NCBI GenBank assembly: GCA_963755915.1
Contig: CAVWLP010000002.1
Coordinates: forward strand, 96,001 to 160,000
Reading direction: 5' to 3'
DNA length: 64,000 bases
From: an uncultured Phycisphaerales bacterium
GTDB taxonomy: Bacteria > Planctomycetota > Phycisphaerae > Tepidisphaerales > Tepidisphaeraceae
Below the pieces are notes generated by a model, which was not told the DNA's origin, made no database searches, and saw nothing but the letters and a program-made list of their open reading frames with translations. Shown here one piece after another: positions 35,463-44,273 of the stretch; the stretch's first letter is position 1, and each line of letters begins with the position of its first letter. A program made the translations under genes and the position numbers.

Positions 35463-36287
35463 TTAGCAACGGCGGTTGCGCGGACGGATCAAATGTAGAC
35501 TAAAGTTGACGGCGAGCATTACCGAGAGCGAAATCGGCTCCGGAACAACTGCAACGGCGGATAGTGACGCTGATTCGACTGCGATGTTGTCGTACTGCCC
35601 GTTGTCCGCGGTCGTGGTGTAGTCAACTGTCAGAGTCTGGCCCGGGGAGTTGGCCACGTAGGTGATCGTGTAAATAGAAAAGTTGGCGCCGTTATCGCTC
35701 GAGGATTCAACGTCCGTGTACGGCGATGCCGAGCCGTCGCTCAGAGCTGCCGTGAGTGAAGCAGTCACATTCACATAGCCCAACGTCAGAATCAGCGTCC
35801 TGGATTCCGTGCTGCTGGCGGCGAATGTCAACTGGAACCCGGTGCCGACTGCCGGCCCATCTGTGGCGCCACCGTTTACCGGATAGGCCTGCATAAACAA
35901 AGGCAGGGCCGAACTCTGATCGGGCGTATTCGTTCCGTCGCTCCAGGTGTACTCGCCAGGCTGATTCGTCCGGTTGGTCAAACCGGAGACGGTCAGACCG
36001 CCAAGCAGCGTCATACCCCGGATATCGTGGGTGGCGACATTTTTCTCATCATAAGGGGTTGTGCTTCCCTGCGTCTCGTTGGAGGCGCCACCCCAAACTG
36101 CCCAGTCATCGGTGCCCACGGTGGTGAGATTTGACGTCCCAGGATCCGTGGTGAGCATGACCGAACCGTTAATGACCCCCGCGCGGGCGGTCAGATCGAG
36201 TGCCGAAACGATCGCCAGGACCAGCCAAACGGCGGTGTAAATACTGATTGCCGAGAGACGTCTAACAGAATGAGGTGCAAGGTCCAT
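35463..36287 (-). CDS. PEP-CTERM-type secreted surface protein
   Basis: Signal peptide and Ser/Thr-rich beta domain. C-terminal VPEP, hydrophobic stretch and basic tail (RPRNRR). Confidence 0.78.
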   Translation of the reverse strand: MDLAPHSVRRLSAISIYTAVWLVLAIVSALDLTARAGVINGSVMLTTDPGTSNLTTVGTDDWAVWGGASNETQGSTTPYDEKNVATHDIRGMTLLGGLTVSGLTNRTNQPGEYTWSDGTNTPDQSSALPLFMQAYPVNGGATDGPAVGTGFQLTFAASSTESRTLILTLGYVNVTASLTAALSDGSASPYTDVESSSDNGANFSIYTITYVANSPGQTLTVDYTTTADNGQYDNIAVESASLSAVAVVPEPISLSVMLAVNFSLHLIRPRNRRC

Positions 36288-36479
36288 ATTCTTCTCCCAT
36301 CCCTTGAAATCTTCAAACACCTGATGTGCAGGATGAATCTAGAAGTGTGATGAGCCAGGTTCAATATTTTTCTGGAGATTTTTTATATAATTTTGCTACG
36401 CAAAATGCGGCACTTGCAATCTCATAACGCGACGAAATCGGCAGCGCCAGCTTAAGGCGCGGGATGGGATAGGGTTCAC

Positions 36480-36710
36480 TTAACTGGGCAGGTTGCACTC
36501 CGGGCATCACTCACCGGCACTTTCGTGAGCGATAGGCAAACTGCACTTCAGACACCATTCACCCTTAACCATCACCCGGACTACCAAGGGAGGGAAAAGA
36601 GGAGGAATTCGAACTCGTAGACCACGCCCCCGAAACCCGGGCAGCATAAATAGACTACTAAAGATTATAAATAGTGCCAAAAACGACAAAAGGCGCTCCC
36701 CAGCTTACCC
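36480..36710 (-). pseudogene. Degenerate membrane + zinc-ribbon gene remnant
   Basis: Hydrophobic LLSFLALFIIFSSLFML, then CLKC...(TGA)CPECNLPS*, the same CxxC...CPEC layout as 36788-37135. Confidence 0.4.
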
Positions 36711-36787
36711 ATCCATCCCAGCTTGTTGCCGAGTGTCCGGTAGTGGTATACTCTGAAGTAATCGGAAAATATTCATCTCTTCGGACA

Positions 36788-37135
36788 TCAAACCGGCCTT
36801 GACTTCATGGGGGTTGTTCCGCATTCCGGGCAGCGATCCGGCGTGGCGCGGAGGTCGTACCCGCATTTTGCACAGCGTCCTCGCAAATCGCGTTTTCGCG
36901 CTCGCCGATCCATGAAGAGTAGAACGGCCGCCATGAAATACAAAGCTGGGCACGCATAGCTAACGATCAAAAGAACCGTTCGCGTCGAATCCGAAAATGG
37001 TCCAAAGGTTCCTATGAGCGTATGAAGCTTGAATTGCCCCAGCCCGTGAATCTCAAACCCGGAAACCAAAATCGAACTCGCGAAGAGAGAGAAGGCGAGC
37101 ATCGCGTATAGCATCCATCGAGGAAAGCTTTTCAC
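36788..37135 (-). CDS. Small membrane protein with C-terminal zinc ribbon
   Basis: Two TM helices, then GRCAKCGYDLRATPDRCPECG. TACAAT lies 7 nt before the GTG start. Confidence 0.75.
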   Translation of the reverse strand: MKSFPRWMLYAMLAFSLFASSILVSGFEIHGLGQFKLHTLIGTFGPFSDSTRTVLLIVSYACPALYFMAAVLLFMDRRARKRDLRGRCAKCGYDLRATPDRCPECGTTPMKSRPV

Positions 37136-37195
37136 GCGACCGATTGTACCGCGCCTCAGCCGATCGGCTTCAGCAAATCATCAATCTCCCAAACC

Positions 37196-38083
37196 TCATG
37201 CGAGCTTCTTTTTCGCTGGCTTATAATCGGTCAGTCTGCCGCCCAGCAACCGCTCTTCCCGTTCCAGCAATTCCACAAAATCACGCATCGTCCATTCTTT
37301 GTTGGCGATTCCGGCCCGAACGGCTGGCGTCGTCTTCAATGTCATGTGAACGCGGATGAAATTGTAGTGCATGTATTGCAGAGCAACCATGTGCTCGTGA
37401 TTCGCCAGCTTCTTTGAGAACGCATTGGTAAGGCGAGTGAATCGCCGATTGCCCATCCGCACCGTCAGATTCTGTCGCTCGATATAGCTCGTGGAAATCT
37501 TCTTCGGCTCGGGCGCGCCGCATACCGCCTCTTTCTTTATGCTGACAACTTCGGGTGGGCTGTAGCGACCGGGGCCCGACCTATCGGGGCCGTAAACTTT
37601 GATGAGCTGCGCGTAGTCAATGTCGTTTCCGAAAGCGGTGTCCACTGCGTCAAGATAGGCTTTCAATCCGTCCGTCGTAAGCTGCACGCGATTCGCCAGC
37701 CGATCCGCAACATCATTCATAAACTTGTGAGCGTACCACCCATTGCGAAGGCCCACAGTGTAGCCGATGACGAGTTTTGTGTCCGCGTCGATTGCAACCC
37801 ACGTCCAAACATCGCCGATGCCAAAGACACCTTGAAGATCGATCGGGACATTCTTTTGTTTGCAACCGACGTACTGCCAGATTTCGTCACATTGGACGCG
37901 GCGGCTACGGACATCGCAGACGGTCAAATCGTGATACTGCGCGGCCAGCGTACCAGCATCGGCCAGCAACCGGAGAACGGTAACCTTGTTCACGCCGAAC
38001 ATCCGGCAGGTTGACGCGATGCTGACGCCTTCAACCAGAGCTGTAAGAACTGCTGCCCGCGTTTCGATGTTCAGCTTTTTCAT
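37196..38083 (-). CDS. IS1-family DDE transposase (single ORF, N-terminal HTH)
   Basis: LVEGVSIASTCRMFGVNKVTV (HTH), VQCDEIW, WTWVAID, LTTDG, STSYIERQNLTVR..NRRFTRLTNAFSKK, YNF.R.H, TPA..AG. Confidence 0.92.
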   Translation of the reverse strand: MKKLNIETRAAVLTALVEGVSIASTCRMFGVNKVTVLRLLADAGTLAAQYHDLTVCDVRSRRVQCDEIWQYVGCKQKNVPIDLQGVFGIGDVWTWVAIDADTKLVIGYTVGLRNGWYAHKFMNDVADRLANRVQLTTDGLKAYLDAVDTAFGNDIDYAQLIKVYGPDRSGPGRYSPPEVVSIKKEAVCGAPEPKKISTSYIERQNLTVRMGNRRFTRLTNAFSKKLANHEHMVALQYMHYNFIRVHMTLKTTPAVRAGIANKEWTMRDFVELLEREERLLGGRLTDYKPAKKKLA

Positions 38084-38090
38084 GTGAGTT

Positions 38091-38159
38091 ATTGTAATTA
38101 CGTAAACATTACAACGCAAGAACAAAATGATTGATTTCTAAGTTTTTTGTGATTACAAT
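38091..38159. promoter_or_regulatory. Candidate RHH operator boxes in the divergent transposase/regulator promoter
   Basis: TTGTAATTACG (38092-38102), half-site ATTACAA (38108-38114) and TTGTGATTACAA (38147-38158) approximate the palindrome TTGTAATTACAA. Confidence 0.55.
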
Positions 38160-38165
38160 GTTGAG

Positions 38166-38378
38166 ATGAAAAAACATATAGGCAGACCGAAAAAACCTGC
38201 GGACCACTCTAAGGGAGAATTGCTCCAGGTGCGATTGGAAGCCAAAGAAAAGCAGGGTTTTTCGGATGCTGCCGCCCTGTCTGGCCTTGCCTTGTCTTCT
38301 TGGGTTCGGGAACGATTGCGTGGCATCGCGCGTCAGGAATTGGAGGGGATGGGAAAGCCGATTCCGTTTATTCCCTAG
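38166..38378 (+). CDS. Ribbon-helix-helix DNA-binding protein
   Basis: GRPKK, beta-strand LLQVRL, helix, AAALSGLALSSWVRERL: typical RHH pattern. Confidence 0.75.
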   Translation: MKKHIGRPKKPADHSKGELLQVRLEAKEKQGFSDAAALSGLALSSWVRERLRGIARQELEGMGKPIPFIP

Positions 38379-38444
38379 GCCGTTTTTATGGGCGGATGCG
38401 GAGTGCTGTACTTCTTTTAATTGCCATGCGATAATTCGCGCATT

Positions 38445-40980
38445 ATGCCTCACAATGGCGAATGGAATCCGTTCTCGACCAAAGACTGGGCGGATGCTAT
38501 TGGCCTAGTGAACATCCCTTTGTTTGGAGGAGAGCAACCCAGAGGAATTGCCGGCGACTTCGCTGTGCTTTTGGACGGACGCCGGTCTAGCTTTGGACTT
38601 TTTCTGGCCGACGATCCTAATGAGCTGATTTACAGCAACCGCCCTCTTTCTTGGTCATGGTCCGCGAATCTGCGCCACTCGTTAATCGTTCACAAAAAAG
38701 CTGACGTTGTTATTCACCGGCGGTGGGACTCTCCTGACAAATCCACAAAATTTCCTATTCCGAGAACGTCTCTTGAGGCGGCGACGGCCTTTGCGGAAAG
38801 AATTGGGTCGGCGAAGGCTAGATCGGCATCGGACGTAATAGGCCGAATGCTTGGCGCGTTCCGCAGGGTGCGGGCCAATTTGGCCCCACAAATTATGGAT
38901 GCCGTTGTCGCGATTCGTGTCTTTAATGCCTTTCTCGTCGGGGCGGAAATGGTTCGAAAGGGCTCGTTGCGTCCTGACGAATGGCGCGGTTGTCGGACAG
39001 TCAAAGACGCTCTCGACCTGATAAAGAACAACGACGATGGCGTCGGAGTTGATAGAATCCCCTCAGACGCAGCAAGCATTGAGATCGGTGGACTTCCCGG
39101 AACATTCATTGATCCTGATCCATCCACCGGATGTGAATTAGAGCCTGATTTGCTGATACGCCATGCGTCCGGCTCGCTCTATCAGGATGCGCATTTCGAA
39201 TTGGAACGAGAAGATCAATTATCGTTGCCTGGGCTTGCCGAGAATCCCTCGTATCAACCTTCACTTCAGCGCGACGCGAGATTTACACAGCCAGCACTTG
39301 CGAGGGCTATGGTGCAACAGGCACTCAAGGCATATCGTCGAACAGAACGCGAACGAGAGATGGTTATATTGGACCCCGCATGCGGGTCGGGGGTTTTTCT
39401 TCAGCATGCCTTGCAAGAGCTGGCAGCTACAGCATGTAAACGTGCGATCAAATTAATTGGCTTTGATACTTCGGCCGTTTCCTGTGCGATTTCAGAATTC
39501 TGTTTACATCGCTCCGCAAGAGATGCGGCGTTGCGCGATTTGAGAGTTACAACCGAGATCAGCGATCAGAATGCGATGCGCAGAATGGCCAGTTGCTGAT
39601 CTGATTCTCACAAATCCACCATTTGCCGCGTGGAAAAAGATGCATGCCGACGATAGGAACATGGTGCGCGAAGTGCTTGGCAAGCTGTTTAAGGGCCATG
39701 CCGACAAGGCAATGGCCTTCATCTGGAAGGCTGCGAATTCAACGGCGATGGGTGGAACCTTTGCTTCGGTTCTTCCGAGCCCGCTACTAGAATCAAACGC
39801 CGGGGAACGGTGGCGGAAAGCGGTTATGGAACTGGCGAACATGGCGCTTGTCGGGCGGTTTCGTGGATACAGTTTCTTTCAAAACGCGATGGTTGAACCC
39901 GCTTTTGTTGTAATGCAGCGGAAGATTTCCGAAGACGATTTACCAAGGCCGGTGCACGTTCTCCTCTCCGATGAGGGAGCGGAAGATGAATCGTTGCGTG
40001 CAATTCGCCGGAACCGCCCAGACGGAGAACATGCGGACGATGACTCGTTCAGTGTGTTTACAGCTCCCCCATCCATAATAACATCCGTAAGTTGGATGCC
40101 CCGGTCGAAAAAGATGATGGAATTGATCCGCCGCCTTAAAGATAGCGAAATTGCGACCGTTGGAGAATTGTTTTCGATCGACCAAGGCGTCCTAACGGGC
40201 CTGAATAGCGCTTTTATTCTTTCCAAGGCTGAATTTCTCGGTCTGCCCGAAGATGAGCGCGAATACTTTATGCCCGCAATTGGATCTTCCACAATTAGGG
40301 GCGGCCAAATTCTTGAAGAGGAATATGTCTTTTATCCCTACTTGAAACCAGAGGACAACGATCCAAATCCGAAGACGCGAATAACCACCGTTGATGAACT
40401 GCGCGAAATGGTTCCGAATTATTTTGATGGTTGGCTACAGCCTTTCGAAGATCGCCTCTTAAAGCGAGAAGGATTCGGACAAAACAATTGGTGGCTTCTC
40501 ACGCGTGAACGAAGATGGCCCAAAGTACCAAAAATCGTCACGGCATATTTCGGCGAGACGGGAAGTTTCAGCTTTGATGTGGAAGGCCGTTTCGTCGTGG
40601 TTCAGGGTTATATCTGGCGATGGAATTCCGCCCAAGACAATGGGGATGAGGAGGCGGAAGAAATAGACTTCAATCGTAGTGGACTGCCGTGGGCTTATGT
40701 GGCGATGCTTAACAGTTCGGTATTCGAGACAATGTTGTCCCAATATTGCCCAAGGGTTCAAGGGGGACAATTTAATCTTTCTGATAGGTTTGTATCTAAT
40801 GCGTTTCTGCCAGACCTTACTGACGAAAGTCGCGTTGTCCCGGACGACGTGAAGGAATTGTCGCGCATTGGATTGAATTTATTCACGAATCGCTTAGTTG
40901 ATCTCAACCGGCTCAATTTAATCGTGGCTCACGTTTATGGAATTACGCTGGCGGACTTAGCAAGCGCAGCGAGGAGCTAG
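38445..40980 (+). CDS. Large N6-adenine DNA methyltransferase (about 845 aa, HsdM/type IIG-like layout); frameshift near 39580
   Basis: FTQPALAR (motif X), ILDPACGSGVFL (motif I), GFD, ILTNPPF (motif IV), SVLPSPLL. C-terminal TRD-like region (QGVLTGLNSAFIL, PKIV, AMLNS). Confidence 0.88.
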
Positions 40981-40982
40981 AC

Positions 40983-41663
40983 ATGGCAGGCGTTTCGCGC
41001 GGAGAAATTAACGCGATGCACGAGCGCCTATCGCGGAGCTTTGGGTCAAACCTTAGAAATGGATGCGATATTGCTCCGATGCCAGAATCCAGGCAGGGCT
41101 GGCATAGGAGAGCGCTTATGGCAGATATAGAATTCTTTCTTTGGAGCAGAAACCGAACACAACAATATGGGCTCCGGTCCGGGGGTCGTGGACAATGCCC
41201 AATCGTTTCCGCGATAGAAACCAGCGACGACTGGGATGTTGGAGAATTCTCGTGGGTAGCGTGGCGGGAAATATGGATCAGGAAGAAAGACGACGAATTT
41301 GATTTGAAAGATGCCGCCTTCACGTTCTTTTGGGGAAGAGAAACCGGATTAGGCCCCATTGACGATCAGTTGTTCCGCGTAGAGTGGCCGCAAAAGGGAT
41401 ACGGGGGCGACAGGTTGGGGCGACCTCATTGGCAAGTAGATTGGCCGCTCGCCGACCTGGAGCGATCTGTATCTGGTATTCATCTCGCGATGGCCGGATG
41501 GAATCAAACCGATGGCCGAAATTTGGATGGTGAACCCCACATATCCGAACACTTTATTCGGTATGCCACGGATGTAATAAGCGACATTGAAATTTGGGCG
41601 TCTCGTACGATGGCCTATTCGTTCGACCAGATCGCTCGATTCTTTCCGAGAAATTGGGGATAG
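40983..41663 (+). CDS. Hypothetical protein coupled to the methyltransferase
   Basis: Starts 2 bp after the MTase stop with RBS GAGGAG; 226 aa; contains LFRVEW...RPHWQ and IHLAM.GW. Confidence 0.75.
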   Translation: MAGVSRGEINAMHERLSRSFGSNLRNGCDIAPMPESRQGWHRRALMADIEFFLWSRNRTQQYGLRSGGRGQCPIVSAIETSDDWDVGEFSWVAWREIWIRKKDDEFDLKDAAFTFFWGRETGLGPIDDQLFRVEWPQKGYGGDRLGRPHWQVDWPLADLERSVSGIHLAMAGWNQTDGRNLDGEPHISEHFIRYATDVISDIEIWASRTMAYSFDQIARFFPRNWG

Positions 41664-41670
41664 AGAAAAA

Positions 41671-41883
41671 TTAGGACATCATCCGTTGTCCCGCTTCCGC
41701 CCCCGCAAAGAACGCCGCCCGCAACAACGTCATCCCCCGTTCATCCACTTTTTGAATCCCCTTCGCCCACGCCTTCCACGCGGCCTCCAGGCCGGGCGGT
41801 AGCTGCTCCTCATGGCGCTTGATTGTCTCGTCAACGATCCGCTTGGCGGTTACGGCGGGGTCGGGGAGCTTGGCCTTTTTCAT
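41671..41883 (-). CDS. Small hypothetical protein at the transposon end
   Basis: MKKAKLPDPAVTAKRIVDETIK...; TACAAT lies 6 nt before the ATG; same strand as the transposase. Confidence 0.7.
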   Translation of the reverse strand: MKKAKLPDPAVTAKRIVDETIKRHEEQLPPGLEAAWKAWAKGIQKVDERGMTLLRAAFFAGAEAGQRMMS

Positions 41884-42023
41884 GGGCAAATTGTATGCCA
41901 AAGTGGCCCCGGCGGCTAAACCCTGAGTATACTACTACCGAATGTCCAGTTTTGTCTTGATTGCCCCAAACCAAAAAAACATCGCCGCCCCAAAAAACCA
42001 CTTCGCGCCACCCCCCAAATTCT

Positions 42024-44273
42024 TCACCCCTCCGCAACCTTCTGCACCACCCCCTGCAACCTCTGAAAATTGATCGGCTTGGTGAGATGATCCGTAAACC
42101 CCGCCTCGCGGGTTTTGAGAATGTCTTCTTCCATTCCAAACCCCGTCAGCGCCACGGCCGGAAAATCGTTTTTACCTCGCTGGCGCAATTGCTGAATCAA
42201 ATCGATCCCCGTTCCATCCGGAAGCCCGATGTCGCTGAGCAGCAGATCGAACGGCTCCTCCGCGGCCACCAGCGCCGACGCCACCGAATCGGCCGTCCGC
42301 ACCTGGTGCCCAAGCCGCTCCAGCAGCCGGCTCATCACCCGCGAGGTGTCGTCGTGATCTTCCACCAGCAAAATCCTCAGCGGCCGCGTCGACCCCGCAG
42401 CGGGCCTGGGCGCCGCGCCCGGCTTTGAAGAGGGGATCGACGGCATCACCGGCGCGGAAGTTGTCGGCATCGAGATCGTGAACGTCGAGCCCTTCCCCAG
42501 CCCCTCGCTTTTAGCCGCGATGGTTCCGCCCTGGGCCTGCACGAACGCCTTGCTCAGGCTCAGCCCCAGTCCCAGCCCGCCATACTGCCGAACGATCTCT
42601 GCCGATCCCTGCTCGAACGGCTGGAAAATCCGCTTGATCGTCTCGGGCGTCATGCCGGTGCCGGTGTCGGTGATGTTGATCTCGACCCGGCCGCTCGCCG
42701 GGTTGAGGCACTTGATCTCGATTTTGCCGCCGGCCGGCGTGAACTTGGCGGCGTTTTTGAGGATGTTCCAGAAAACCTGCTGAAGCCGCCCGGCATCCGC
42801 CATCACAAATCGCGATTCGGCGTTGAGGTGCATCTCCAGCACGATCGACTTGGCGTTCAGATCGGACCGGTAGATCCGCGTCACCCCATCGAGCATGGCA
42901 TGAACGTCGACGGCTTCCATGTGCAGCGCCAGCTTACCACGCACGATGCGGGTAAGATCAAGCAGATCGTCGATCAATCGCGCTTCCAGCTCCGCACATC
43001 GCCGGAGCGTGCCTAGGTCCTCGCGAAACTCGACCGGAAACGACGGGTTCTGCGTCCAGGAGGTGAGCGTGACGACGACAGGCGTGAGCGGCGTGCGCAG
43101 CTCGTGCGAAAGAACGGCCAGAAAATTGTCCTTGGCCACGTTGGCGCTCTCGGCCTCTTCCTTGGCGTGCTGGAGGTTCTGCTCGAACTGTTTTCGCTCG
43201 GTGAAATCGCGGAAGACCAGCACAACGCCGTGAATGATCCCATCGTCCCCGCGGATCGGCGCCCCGCTGTCGTCGATGGGCAATTCGGAGCCGTCCTTGC
43301 GGATCAGCACCGTATGATTCGCCAATCCCTGCACCACACCGGTCTCCAGAACCTTTTCGACGGGATTAGGCACCGGCTTATGCGTCGTTTCGTTGACGAT
43401 CCGGAAAATCACCCCGCACGGTTTCCCGCCCGCTTCCGCGGAGGTCCATCCCGTGAGCTGCTCGGCGACGGCGTTCATGAAAACGATATTTCCTTTCGCG
43501 TCGGTGACGATCACCCCGTCGCCGATACTCGCCAGCGTTACTGCGGTCAGGCGCTGCTGGCGGGCCAAGTCATCGACCACAACTTCTCGCCGGCGCATTT
43601 CCTGCTGGATCTGGTTAAACGCCCAGGCGAGGAATATAAGGTTGATCCCGGCGGTAAAGGCAAATGCGAGTGTATGGATGTCGGTAACCCGCTCGGTCTT
43701 TTGCTGGACAGCGAGCTGCCGCTGCTCCCCCTGGTCGATCATGTGGGTGATCAGCGTGCGGATGTCGTCCATGAACTGCTTGCCGACGTTGGATTTGACG
43801 GTTGCCAATGCCGCCGCGGATCCTTCGGGACCCCGCTGCTGGTCGATGGTGAGTTTCAACTCCGCCATTTTTTCATGGCAAAGCTCCTGAAGCCGACTCA
43901 CGTCATCCTTATCCAGCAACCCTTCATTGACCCGCGCATCGAGATCGGCCAATTGCCCGTCCACCCGGCCGACTGCCGTGGTATAGGGCGCCAGATACGT
44001 CGAATTCCCCGTCAGGAGATAACCCCGCTGGCCGGTTTCAGCATCTTTTAAGGTGGAGAGCACTACGTTGAGGGCATCGACCGTGTTATGGACCCTCAGC
44101 AAAGACCGCCCATATTCAATCCGCACCTGGCCGATCCAGTAAGTGCCCGCCACGGTTGCGACCAGAAGCAGGGCCATGGCCCAGAAAAGGGTTTGGACGC
44201 TGAGCGTGGGGCGGATTCGCCGTTGTCGTACGAAGCCGTCGATCGTGAAATTTTCAGATTTTTCCATGCCCAT
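42024..44273 (-). CDS. Hybrid sensor histidine kinase (CHASE3-PAS-HisKA-HATPase-REC)
   Basis: DAETGQRGYLLTG, SIGDGVIVTD, SHELRTPL, NILKNAAKFT, DTGTG, GLGLGL, LLVEDH...SDIGLPD...KP. Confidence 0.95.
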   Translation of the reverse strand: MGMEKSENFTIDGFVRQRRIRPTLSVQTLFWAMALLLVATVAGTYWIGQVRIEYGRSLLRVHNTVDALNVVLSTLKDAETGQRGYLLTGNSTYLAPYTTAVGRVDGQLADLDARVNEGLLDKDDVSRLQELCHEKMAELKLTIDQQRGPEGSAAALATVKSNVGKQFMDDIRTLITHMIDQGEQRQLAVQQKTERVTDIHTLAFAFTAGINLIFLAWAFNQIQQEMRRREVVVDDLARQQRLTAVTLASIGDGVIVTDAKGNIVFMNAVAEQLTGWTSAEAGGKPCGVIFRIVNETTHKPVPNPVEKVLETGVVQGLANHTVLIRKDGSELPIDDSGAPIRGDDGIIHGVVLVFRDFTERKQFEQNLQHAKEEAESANVAKDNFLAVLSHELRTPLTPVVVTLTSWTQNPSFPVEFREDLGTLRRCAELEARLIDDLLDLTRIVRGKLALHMEAVDVHAMLDGVTRIYRSDLNAKSIVLEMHLNAESRFVMADAGRLQQVFWNILKNAAKFTPAGGKIEIKCLNPASGRVEINITDTGTGMTPETIKRIFQPFEQGSAEIVRQYGGLGLGLSLSKAFVQAQGGTIAAKSEGLGKGSTFTISMPTTSAPVMPSIPSSKPGAAPRPAAGSTRPLRILLVEDHDDTSRVMSRLLERLGHQVRTADSVASALVAAEEPFDLLLSDIGLPDGTGIDLIQQLRQRGKNDFPAVALTGFGMEEDILKTREAGFTDHLTKPINFQRLQGVVQKVAEG

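Follow-up and report, generated by a model that had tools for sequence, protein, structure and literature searches.

A very probable IS1-family unit transposon with passenger genes in an uncultured Phycisphaerales bacterium

Classical IS1 insertion sequences (ISs) are about 0.8-1.2 kb long and carry two frames, InsA and InsB', joined by a -1 frameshift. The ends of IS1-family elements begin GGnnnTG in ISfinder, and their target duplications measure 8-9 bp. ISfinder also distinguishes a subgroup with a single open reading frame (ORF) and the ISMhu11 subgroup, which reaches about 4.6 kb and includes passengers. A literature search returned nothing under the name ISMhu11, and searches for the IS1 family in combination with passenger or cargo genes returned general reviews only. 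The notion of a transporter IS was reportedly defined together with the description of the IS1595 family by Siguier, Gagnevin and Chandler in 2009. Three articles treat transporter ISs, that is, IS-like elements with passenger genes, as an established category (PMC3129680, PMC9330008, PMC7986276). The element described here lies in a window of 64,000 nucleotides from the genome of an uncultured Phycisphaerales bacterium (G000:C2:96001-160000, C2 being a contig of the source genome G000; positions are those of the window unless a contig is named). It spans positions 36739-41939 (5201 bp) and is very probably a complete IS1-family unit transposon, or transporter IS, with passenger genes. Given that this category is already established, the element is less novel than an earlier, sequence-only reading of the same DNA had held.

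The element is intergenic, 85 bp past the 3' end of a histidine-kinase gene, and its limits were located both by direct reading and by a repeat search. At the transposase side it opens on the forward strand with the terminal inverted repeat GGTAGTGGTATACTCTG (36739-36755), a 17-mer of the type also found at the ends of a second element in the same genome (element B), and at the far end it closes with CTGAGTATACTACTACC (41923-41939, reverse strand). The reverse complement of the latter, GGTAGTAGTATACTCAG, matches the left end at 15 of 17 positions, with GGTAGTG on the left and GGTAGTA on the right. Directly abutting these ends are the two copies of the target-site duplication, GAGTGTCC on the left (36731-36738) and, from direct reading, GAATGTCC on the right (41940-41947), which agree at seven of eight positions. 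The repeats and flanks described in the sequence-only reading were confirmed at these positions and with these match counts, and ORFs were found for all six of the genes that it had placed inside, the methylase among them as two overlapping frames. GC content ranges from 0.49 to 0.55 within the element, as against 0.57 to 0.65 in the flanks, a contrast that marks the element as foreign in composition.

The end repeat by itself proves little, since with the settings applied the search of the surrounding 8-kb stretch listed this pair as one of 259 inverted pairs, several of which exceed it in length. On that ground both the inverted 17-mers and their 8-bp flanks might be dismissed as coincidental, but the distribution of the ends renders this explanation vanishingly improbable. 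The 15-mer core of the ends, GGTAGTRGTATACTC, for which we estimate a chance expectation of about 0.03 per genome under an assumption of equal base frequencies, is matched exactly at four places in the 6.63-Mb genome. All four belong to two inverted pairs, and both pairs enclose an IS1-type transposase gene. Ends of the same kind, accompanied by 8-bp duplications, recur moreover around related transposase genes in other genomes and in metagenomes.

A search covering one genome per species identified 76 loci with a related transposase, spread over many phyla. Elements were delimited by a 17-bp inverted pair starting with GG, matching at 13 or more positions, bracketing the gene and flanked by an 8-bp repeat with at least seven matches, which yielded candidates at 53 of the 76 loci. 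Two of these (L079 and L092) were dropped for having weak 13/17 pairs lying 9-12 kb apart, as was one extra pair with other end sequences in each of L026 and L047. This left 51 genome loci with a pair of GGT/GGC-type (GGTAGTG-type) ends bracketing the gene, in elements of 2029-6911 bp, and the 8-bp duplication is perfect in 46 of them. Among 80 metagenome loci, for which inverted pairs of at least 14/17 were required, 31 hold complete elements with the same end type and an 8-bp duplication (2158-6746 bp). A few of these represent the same insertion in two samples, and many of the remaining metagenome contigs are too short to hold an element. The shortest of the 82 complete relatives measures 2029 bp, and none is close to 1 kb. 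A cultured example is provided by a 2634-bp element on a plasmid of Acidiphilium multivorum, in whose gene table an 'IS1 family transposase' accompanies four hypothetical proteins, without any mobile-element features. The expectation that annotation pipelines would report only the transposase is in keeping with this one annotated relative, as far as its table goes.

The arrangement of genes within these elements was analysed by clustering ORFs from 56 of them, comprising the 51 genome elements and elements A to E of the source genome, where A is the element in the window. The end on the transposase-start side lies more than 400 bp from the gene in 55 of the 56 (median near 2 kb, maximum 5.6 kb); the sole exception, L027, has its end 119 bp from the transposase start and carries its cargo on the other side. 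Hence no element of the set is a bare IS of about 1 kb, and the earlier proposal of a single-transposase, non-composite transposon moving passenger genes is supported by one transposase gene, one end pair and a duplication outside them. Two flanking IS copies, as in a composite transposon, are not found here: there is a single transposase gene, and neither within the element nor in reach of it does another end motif occur.

These data also bear on the possibility that only the transposase and the adjoining zinc-ribbon gene (about 1.4 kb) constitute an IS, the far end being stray and the methylase genes trapped chromosomal DNA. Such a unit would approach the classical IS1 length of about 0.8-1.2 kb, and a cassette of ribbon-helix-helix (RHH) regulator, methylase and partner genes does occur without an IS1 gene in another contig (L105). 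Against this, a genome scan allowing up to two mismatches detected no other copy of the end motif in the element, and it follows that no end adjoins the transposase start. The far end bears the small gene typical of the family, in its usual place and direction (52 of 56 elements), the 8-bp duplication encloses the complete 5.2 kb, and low GC extends across this entire length. In addition, a sister species has at the same site an element with the same two ends and other cargo. We consequently consider a short IS very improbable, and retain the interpretation of the full 5201 bp as one transposon.

The transposase gene occupies 37196-38083 on the reverse strand and encodes 295 aa from the ATG at 38083, its open frame extending further to 38125 (a 309-aa frame). 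The assignment to the IS1 family relies on a match to the Pfam domain DDE_Tnp_IS1 (PF03400; 27.9 bits, above the gathering cut-off of 24.1), on the conserved residues and on the names of its relatives. Identities with full-length relatives go up to 89%, the database contains at least 8000 proteins matching at E <= 1e-20, and those relatives that are named at NCBI and JGI are called 'IS1 family transposase'. An alignment of 47 transposases shows D80, D152 and E216 (numbered in the 309-aa frame) to be conserved in 95% or more of them, and no Pfam IS1595 domain was detected in the protein.

The source genome contains several further members of the family. Element B (3255 bp) is delimited by an inverted end pair at C2:1251771 and C2:1255025, with a perfect 8-bp duplication, GTTTGGGG, and its transposase gene is 79-83% identical to that of the window. 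Element C (C2:3543407-3550791) presents an end pair with two changed motif bases and a perfect duplication, CGAAATCG; about 4.4 kb of DNA inserted later interrupts its transposase gene. Element D (3614 bp) and elements E and F (2.44 kb) have ends of a sister type, GGTAGTGGGTCAGTTTG, and perfect 8-bp duplications flank all three. Elements E and F are identical at 2440 of 2443 positions and lie in unrelated flanks with different duplications, which indicates recent movement of a cargo-bearing unit of this family in the source genome.

Elements C and D and a remnant end are all flanked by the same target, CGAAATCG. In the region G000:C2:3543382-3554421 the remnant end, element C and element D follow one another with nothing but copies of CGAAATCG between them. 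Each new arrival apparently entered exactly the duplication beside a resident end, and this array suggests end-adjacent targeting in the family. Elsewhere in the genome, an 88-bp stretch (G000:C3:1297899-1297986) has family inverted ends and a perfect duplication, TAATCCGG, and no genes; it looks like a derivative of the kind of a miniature inverted-repeat transposable element. Single frame changes split the transposase gene of element B, the gene for an HExxH protein in element C, and the methylase genes of both the window and L105. The source assembly consists of three contigs with an estimated completeness of 81%, and many of the frame splits in these elements may stem from indel errors in long reads, given that the one frameshift checked disappears in short-read contigs.

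Across the 56 elements, the transposase is present in every one, and a gene for a small lysine-rich protein in 47. In the window element, elements B and C, L019 and L020, the same place is taken by a gene that we term small76, so that a small terminal gene of either form is found in 52 of the 56. Of these, 33 have the start of the small gene no more than 110 bp from the end that it points away from. The two forms have an N-terminal motif in common, and one database relative combines the C-terminal parts of both. The transposase and the small terminal gene are thus the fixed backbone of the family, the small gene being no passenger, which amends the sequence-only reading. In the window small76 (71-76 aa) lies at 41671-41901 on the reverse strand and is read from the far end towards the interior. 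A total of 121 representative relatives were found for it, and its predicted fold comprises three helices (predicted local distance difference test score, pLDDT, 76), for which a Foldseek search of the PDB returned nothing at E <= 0.001; the lysine-rich protein gave no Pfam match. We infer that the small end protein may act as a DNA-binding helper or as a regulator of transposition.

The DNA between the small terminal gene and the transposase differs from element to element, and behind the transposase lies a second slot, which in 26 of the 56 elements is empty (no more than 110 bp) and in 25 exceeds 400 bp. Pfam matches among the 94 family cargo ORFs of at least 100 aa include Peptidase_M78 (8), HTH_3 (8), SDH_protease (3), Fic, PIN and Bro-N (2 each), and RhuM, SocA_Panacea, HicB and HipA_2 (1 each), with nested IS genes also represented; no other methylase was found in this set. 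The cargo of the family hence consists mostly of toxin-antitoxin or defence-like genes. ARAGORN predicted tRNA-like genes upstream of the transposase in five of the 56 elements (L022, L033, L048, L072 and L080), some of them with odd anticodons (one of four bases and one reading 'stop'), and none in elements A to E. Positions 36000-42600 of the window contain no tRNA or Rfam match.

In the window element the slot downstream of the transposase is occupied by a gene for a 115-aa membrane protein (36788-37135, reverse strand) with two hydrophobic segments and a C-terminal CxxC...CxxC zinc ribbon that weakly matches DZR. Element D carries a similar gene in this slot, and in the element of the sister species the slot holds a zinc-ribbon membrane gene that is unrelated and lies on the opposite strand. 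The 56 bases coding for the zinc ribbon (36810-36865) and another near the transposase stop (37112-37195) recur repeatedly at 80-94% identity, with many copies in related genomes and in the source genome. Arrays of these repeats, together with short C-terminal fragments of transposases, occupy C2:3541-3543 kb and C3:1339-1342 kb, and short-read depth is raised over both stretches in the window.

On the other side of the transposase, an AT-rich divergent intergenic region (38084-38165) separates it from the cargo operon and contains an imperfect palindrome of 29 nt (38091-38119 and 38131-38159, 72% complementary in the repeat search). This region would serve as a shared promoter and operator for the transposase gene and the operon. 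The first gene of the operon (38166-38378, forward strand) encodes a 70-aa RHH regulator with a weak NikA-like match. Its closest relative, in sequences compared by eye, is the RHH protein of L105, those of elements B and C being much more distant, which assigns the gene to the methylase cassette; the regulator slot as such is possibly also part of the backbone rather than a passenger position.

The second gene of the operon (38445-40980, forward strand) encodes an N6-adenine DNA methyltransferase of the M.BseCI/Eco57I type. In the assembly it is split at about 39577 into two overlapping ORFs (38421-39599 and 39571-40980). Short-read contigs of all three soil runs listed at that position (X1, X2 and X4) contain two extra bases behind 39577, with which the frame runs unbroken for 845 codons (38445-40980), and the frameshift is probably an assembly error or a variant. 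The protein presents the S-adenosylmethionine-binding motif DPACGSG and the motif NPPF, and matches the Pfam families N6_Mtase and Eco57I. Residues 253-763 of a relative in a Proteobacteria contig (L107) align with nearly the whole of M.BseCI (PDB 7qw5, E 2.9e-18). Methylases of this family are common (139 proteins at E <= 1e-10). The N-terminal extension spans about 250 aa; its first 270 residues gave no Pfam match, and a protein atlas returned for them weak leads to MmeI N-terminal and spacer domains (scores of about 0.91, with few shared features) that were not relied upon.

Adjoining the methylase is a gene for a 226-aa partner protein (40983-41663, forward strand), and L105 and L107 show the two genes in the same arrangement. 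Relatives of the partner are rare, amounting to 8 clusters in the protein collection at E <= 0.001. The partner has no Pfam, NCBIfam or PADLOC match, the protein atlas gave unnamed clusters only, and the AlphaFold model (pLDDT 42) was unusable. A PDB match to a cytochrome (E 0.037) was treated as due to chance. No nuclease was recognised in the partner or in the N-terminal part of the methylase with Pfam, NCBIfam, PADLOC or the PDB. A search of genome contigs for the methylase identified one locus, L105, an Acidobacteriaceae contig with genes for an RHH protein, a methylase (about 45% identical) and the partner in the same order; the 11 kb of this contig contain neither an IS1 gene nor the ends. 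In L107 an unbroken 811-aa methylase gene overlaps that for a distant partner of 259 aa. The RHH-methylase-partner cassette thus also exists outside transposons. The set may represent self-stabilising or defence cargo, possibly a restriction-modification pair.

A comparison with the sister species G001, of the same genus, revealed an element of 3124 bp at the same site (locus L019). About 20-40 nt of the left flank are homologous and several kb of the right flank are colinear at 87-92% identity. The G001 element is flanked by GACTGTCC on both sides, and the variable base of the duplication is C in both copies, as against G and A in the window. Its transposase is 89% identical at the protein level and its small76 gene almost identical; its cargo comprises a Fic gene and the zinc-ribbon membrane gene mentioned above, and homology between the two elements ends at the edges of the backbone genes. 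A methylase and partner at this locus without ends or transposase, which the sequence-only reading would have counted against a transposon, are not what the one relative keeping the locus shows; G001 has a family element there. The left DNA of the window (35463-36320, and flank to about 36690) beyond some 45 nt could not be aligned with G001, and the left side of the locus has been touched by a further rearrangement.

The shared site is explained either by an ancestral insertion whose interior has been exchanged or by repeated insertion at one site. Repeated insertion is plausible because elements C and D and the remnant end all use CGAAATCG. The window element might be genuine and yet now a fixed relic, inserted before the split from G001, vertically inherited without moving again, and recombined in its interior with other members of the family. 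We give this account serious weight, somewhat short of an even chance. The related element at the same site with colinear flanks, the near-identical small terminal genes and 89% identical transposases, the imperfect ends (15/17) and duplication (7/8), and the failure to find a second copy are all consistent with it. It is less easily reconciled with the intact transposase frame, which retains the D/D/E residues; the differing variable base fits independent insertions at least as well, and the repeated use of one 8-bp target (CGAAATCG) by the family means that a shared site does not prove common descent. The single mismatch in the duplication, the two in the ends and the related element in G001 do indicate that the window copy is probably old.

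Several results weigh against the interpretation of 36739-41939 as a complete and mobile unit transposon. With the NCBIfam model transpos_IS1 (NF033558) the transposase scores 57.9 bits, short of the curated cut-off of 100. Searches of 30 relatives with a 9.8-kb query, among them the unpublished G014, which enters into this count alone, revealed no empty site, as synteny is lost beyond G001, the only relative in which the locus is kept and one in which it is occupied; an exact scan of metagenome contigs for 25 bases of the right flank likewise gave 0 matches. A second copy of the window element with its methylase cargo was absent from the genome and metagenome contigs searched, and movement of this exact cargo set is accordingly deduced from the family. 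The shared site in G001, together with the 7/8 duplication and the 15/17 ends, means that this copy has possibly become inactive. In the methylase, the two bases added by short-read contigs could be a strain variant and not the correction of an error. The best metagenome relative of the transposase is 59% identical. None of the contigs from four soil runs joins across the element, although contigs cannot show absence. Speaking in favour of its presence in the field, short-read soil contigs bridge the left junction and carry the methylase frame unbroken.

By analogy with IS1, the single-ORF DDE transposase of the unit transposon would recognise both GGTAGT-type 17-bp ends and join these to target DNA whose two strands are cut 8 bp apart, with everything between the ends moving and an 8-bp duplication being left behind. 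The variable slot between the backbone genes holds the RHH-methylase-partner operon, transcribed divergently from the transposase, and the second slot behind the transposase the small zinc-ribbon membrane protein. The element belongs to a large, poorly catalogued group of cargo-carrying IS1-family elements. A bolder proposal, which we put forward tentatively and consider rather unlikely, is that this very large, uncatalogued IS1-derived clade operates as a platform for cassette exchange, in which a fixed backbone with two slots shuffles addiction and defence modules between phyla, resident copies serve as landing pads and cargo is swapped in place, as between this species and its sister. The role as landing pads is suggested by the reuse of the same 8-bp target beside an existing end. 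If this proposal were true, the methylase and its rare partner would constitute a new two-gene defence or addiction system.

The label 'IS1 family transposase' can thus hide complete multi-gene transposons, through which genes for toxin-antitoxin systems, defence and DNA modification would pass between distant soil bacteria. Where annotation stops at the transposase, the ends, backbone gene and cargo go unrecorded, and with them a route of horizontal transfer. The different cargo at one site in two sister species offers a concrete case for the study of cargo exchange, and the conserved small gene at the end is a candidate for a new transposition cofactor.

In relation to described systems, the element resembles mobile restriction-modification and toxin-antitoxin cassettes in that the cargo of its family consists mostly of addiction or defence modules, to which the window element contributes a methylase, its conserved partner and a small regulator. 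Unlike known restriction-modification cassettes, it contains no nuclease recognised by these searches, and restriction-modification is accordingly a hypothetical label for this set. With the IS1 family it shares a DDE transposase scoring above the Pfam IS1 threshold, GG-initial ends of the form GGTnnTG, in keeping with the GGnnnTG of ISfinder, and an 8-bp target-site duplication. It differs from E. coli IS1 in length (5201 bp as compared with about 0.8-1.2 kb), in having one long transposase frame of 295 aa with an N-terminal helix-turn-helix in place of the InsA/InsB' frameshift pair, in carrying five further genes, and in falling short of the NCBIfam cut-off for IS1 transposases. It also corresponds to the transporter ISs, which likewise combine one transposase and one pair of ends with passengers unrelated to transposition and a duplication around the whole; the present clade goes beyond this plan in having a conserved small gene at the end opposite the transposase, as well as two defined slots for cargo.

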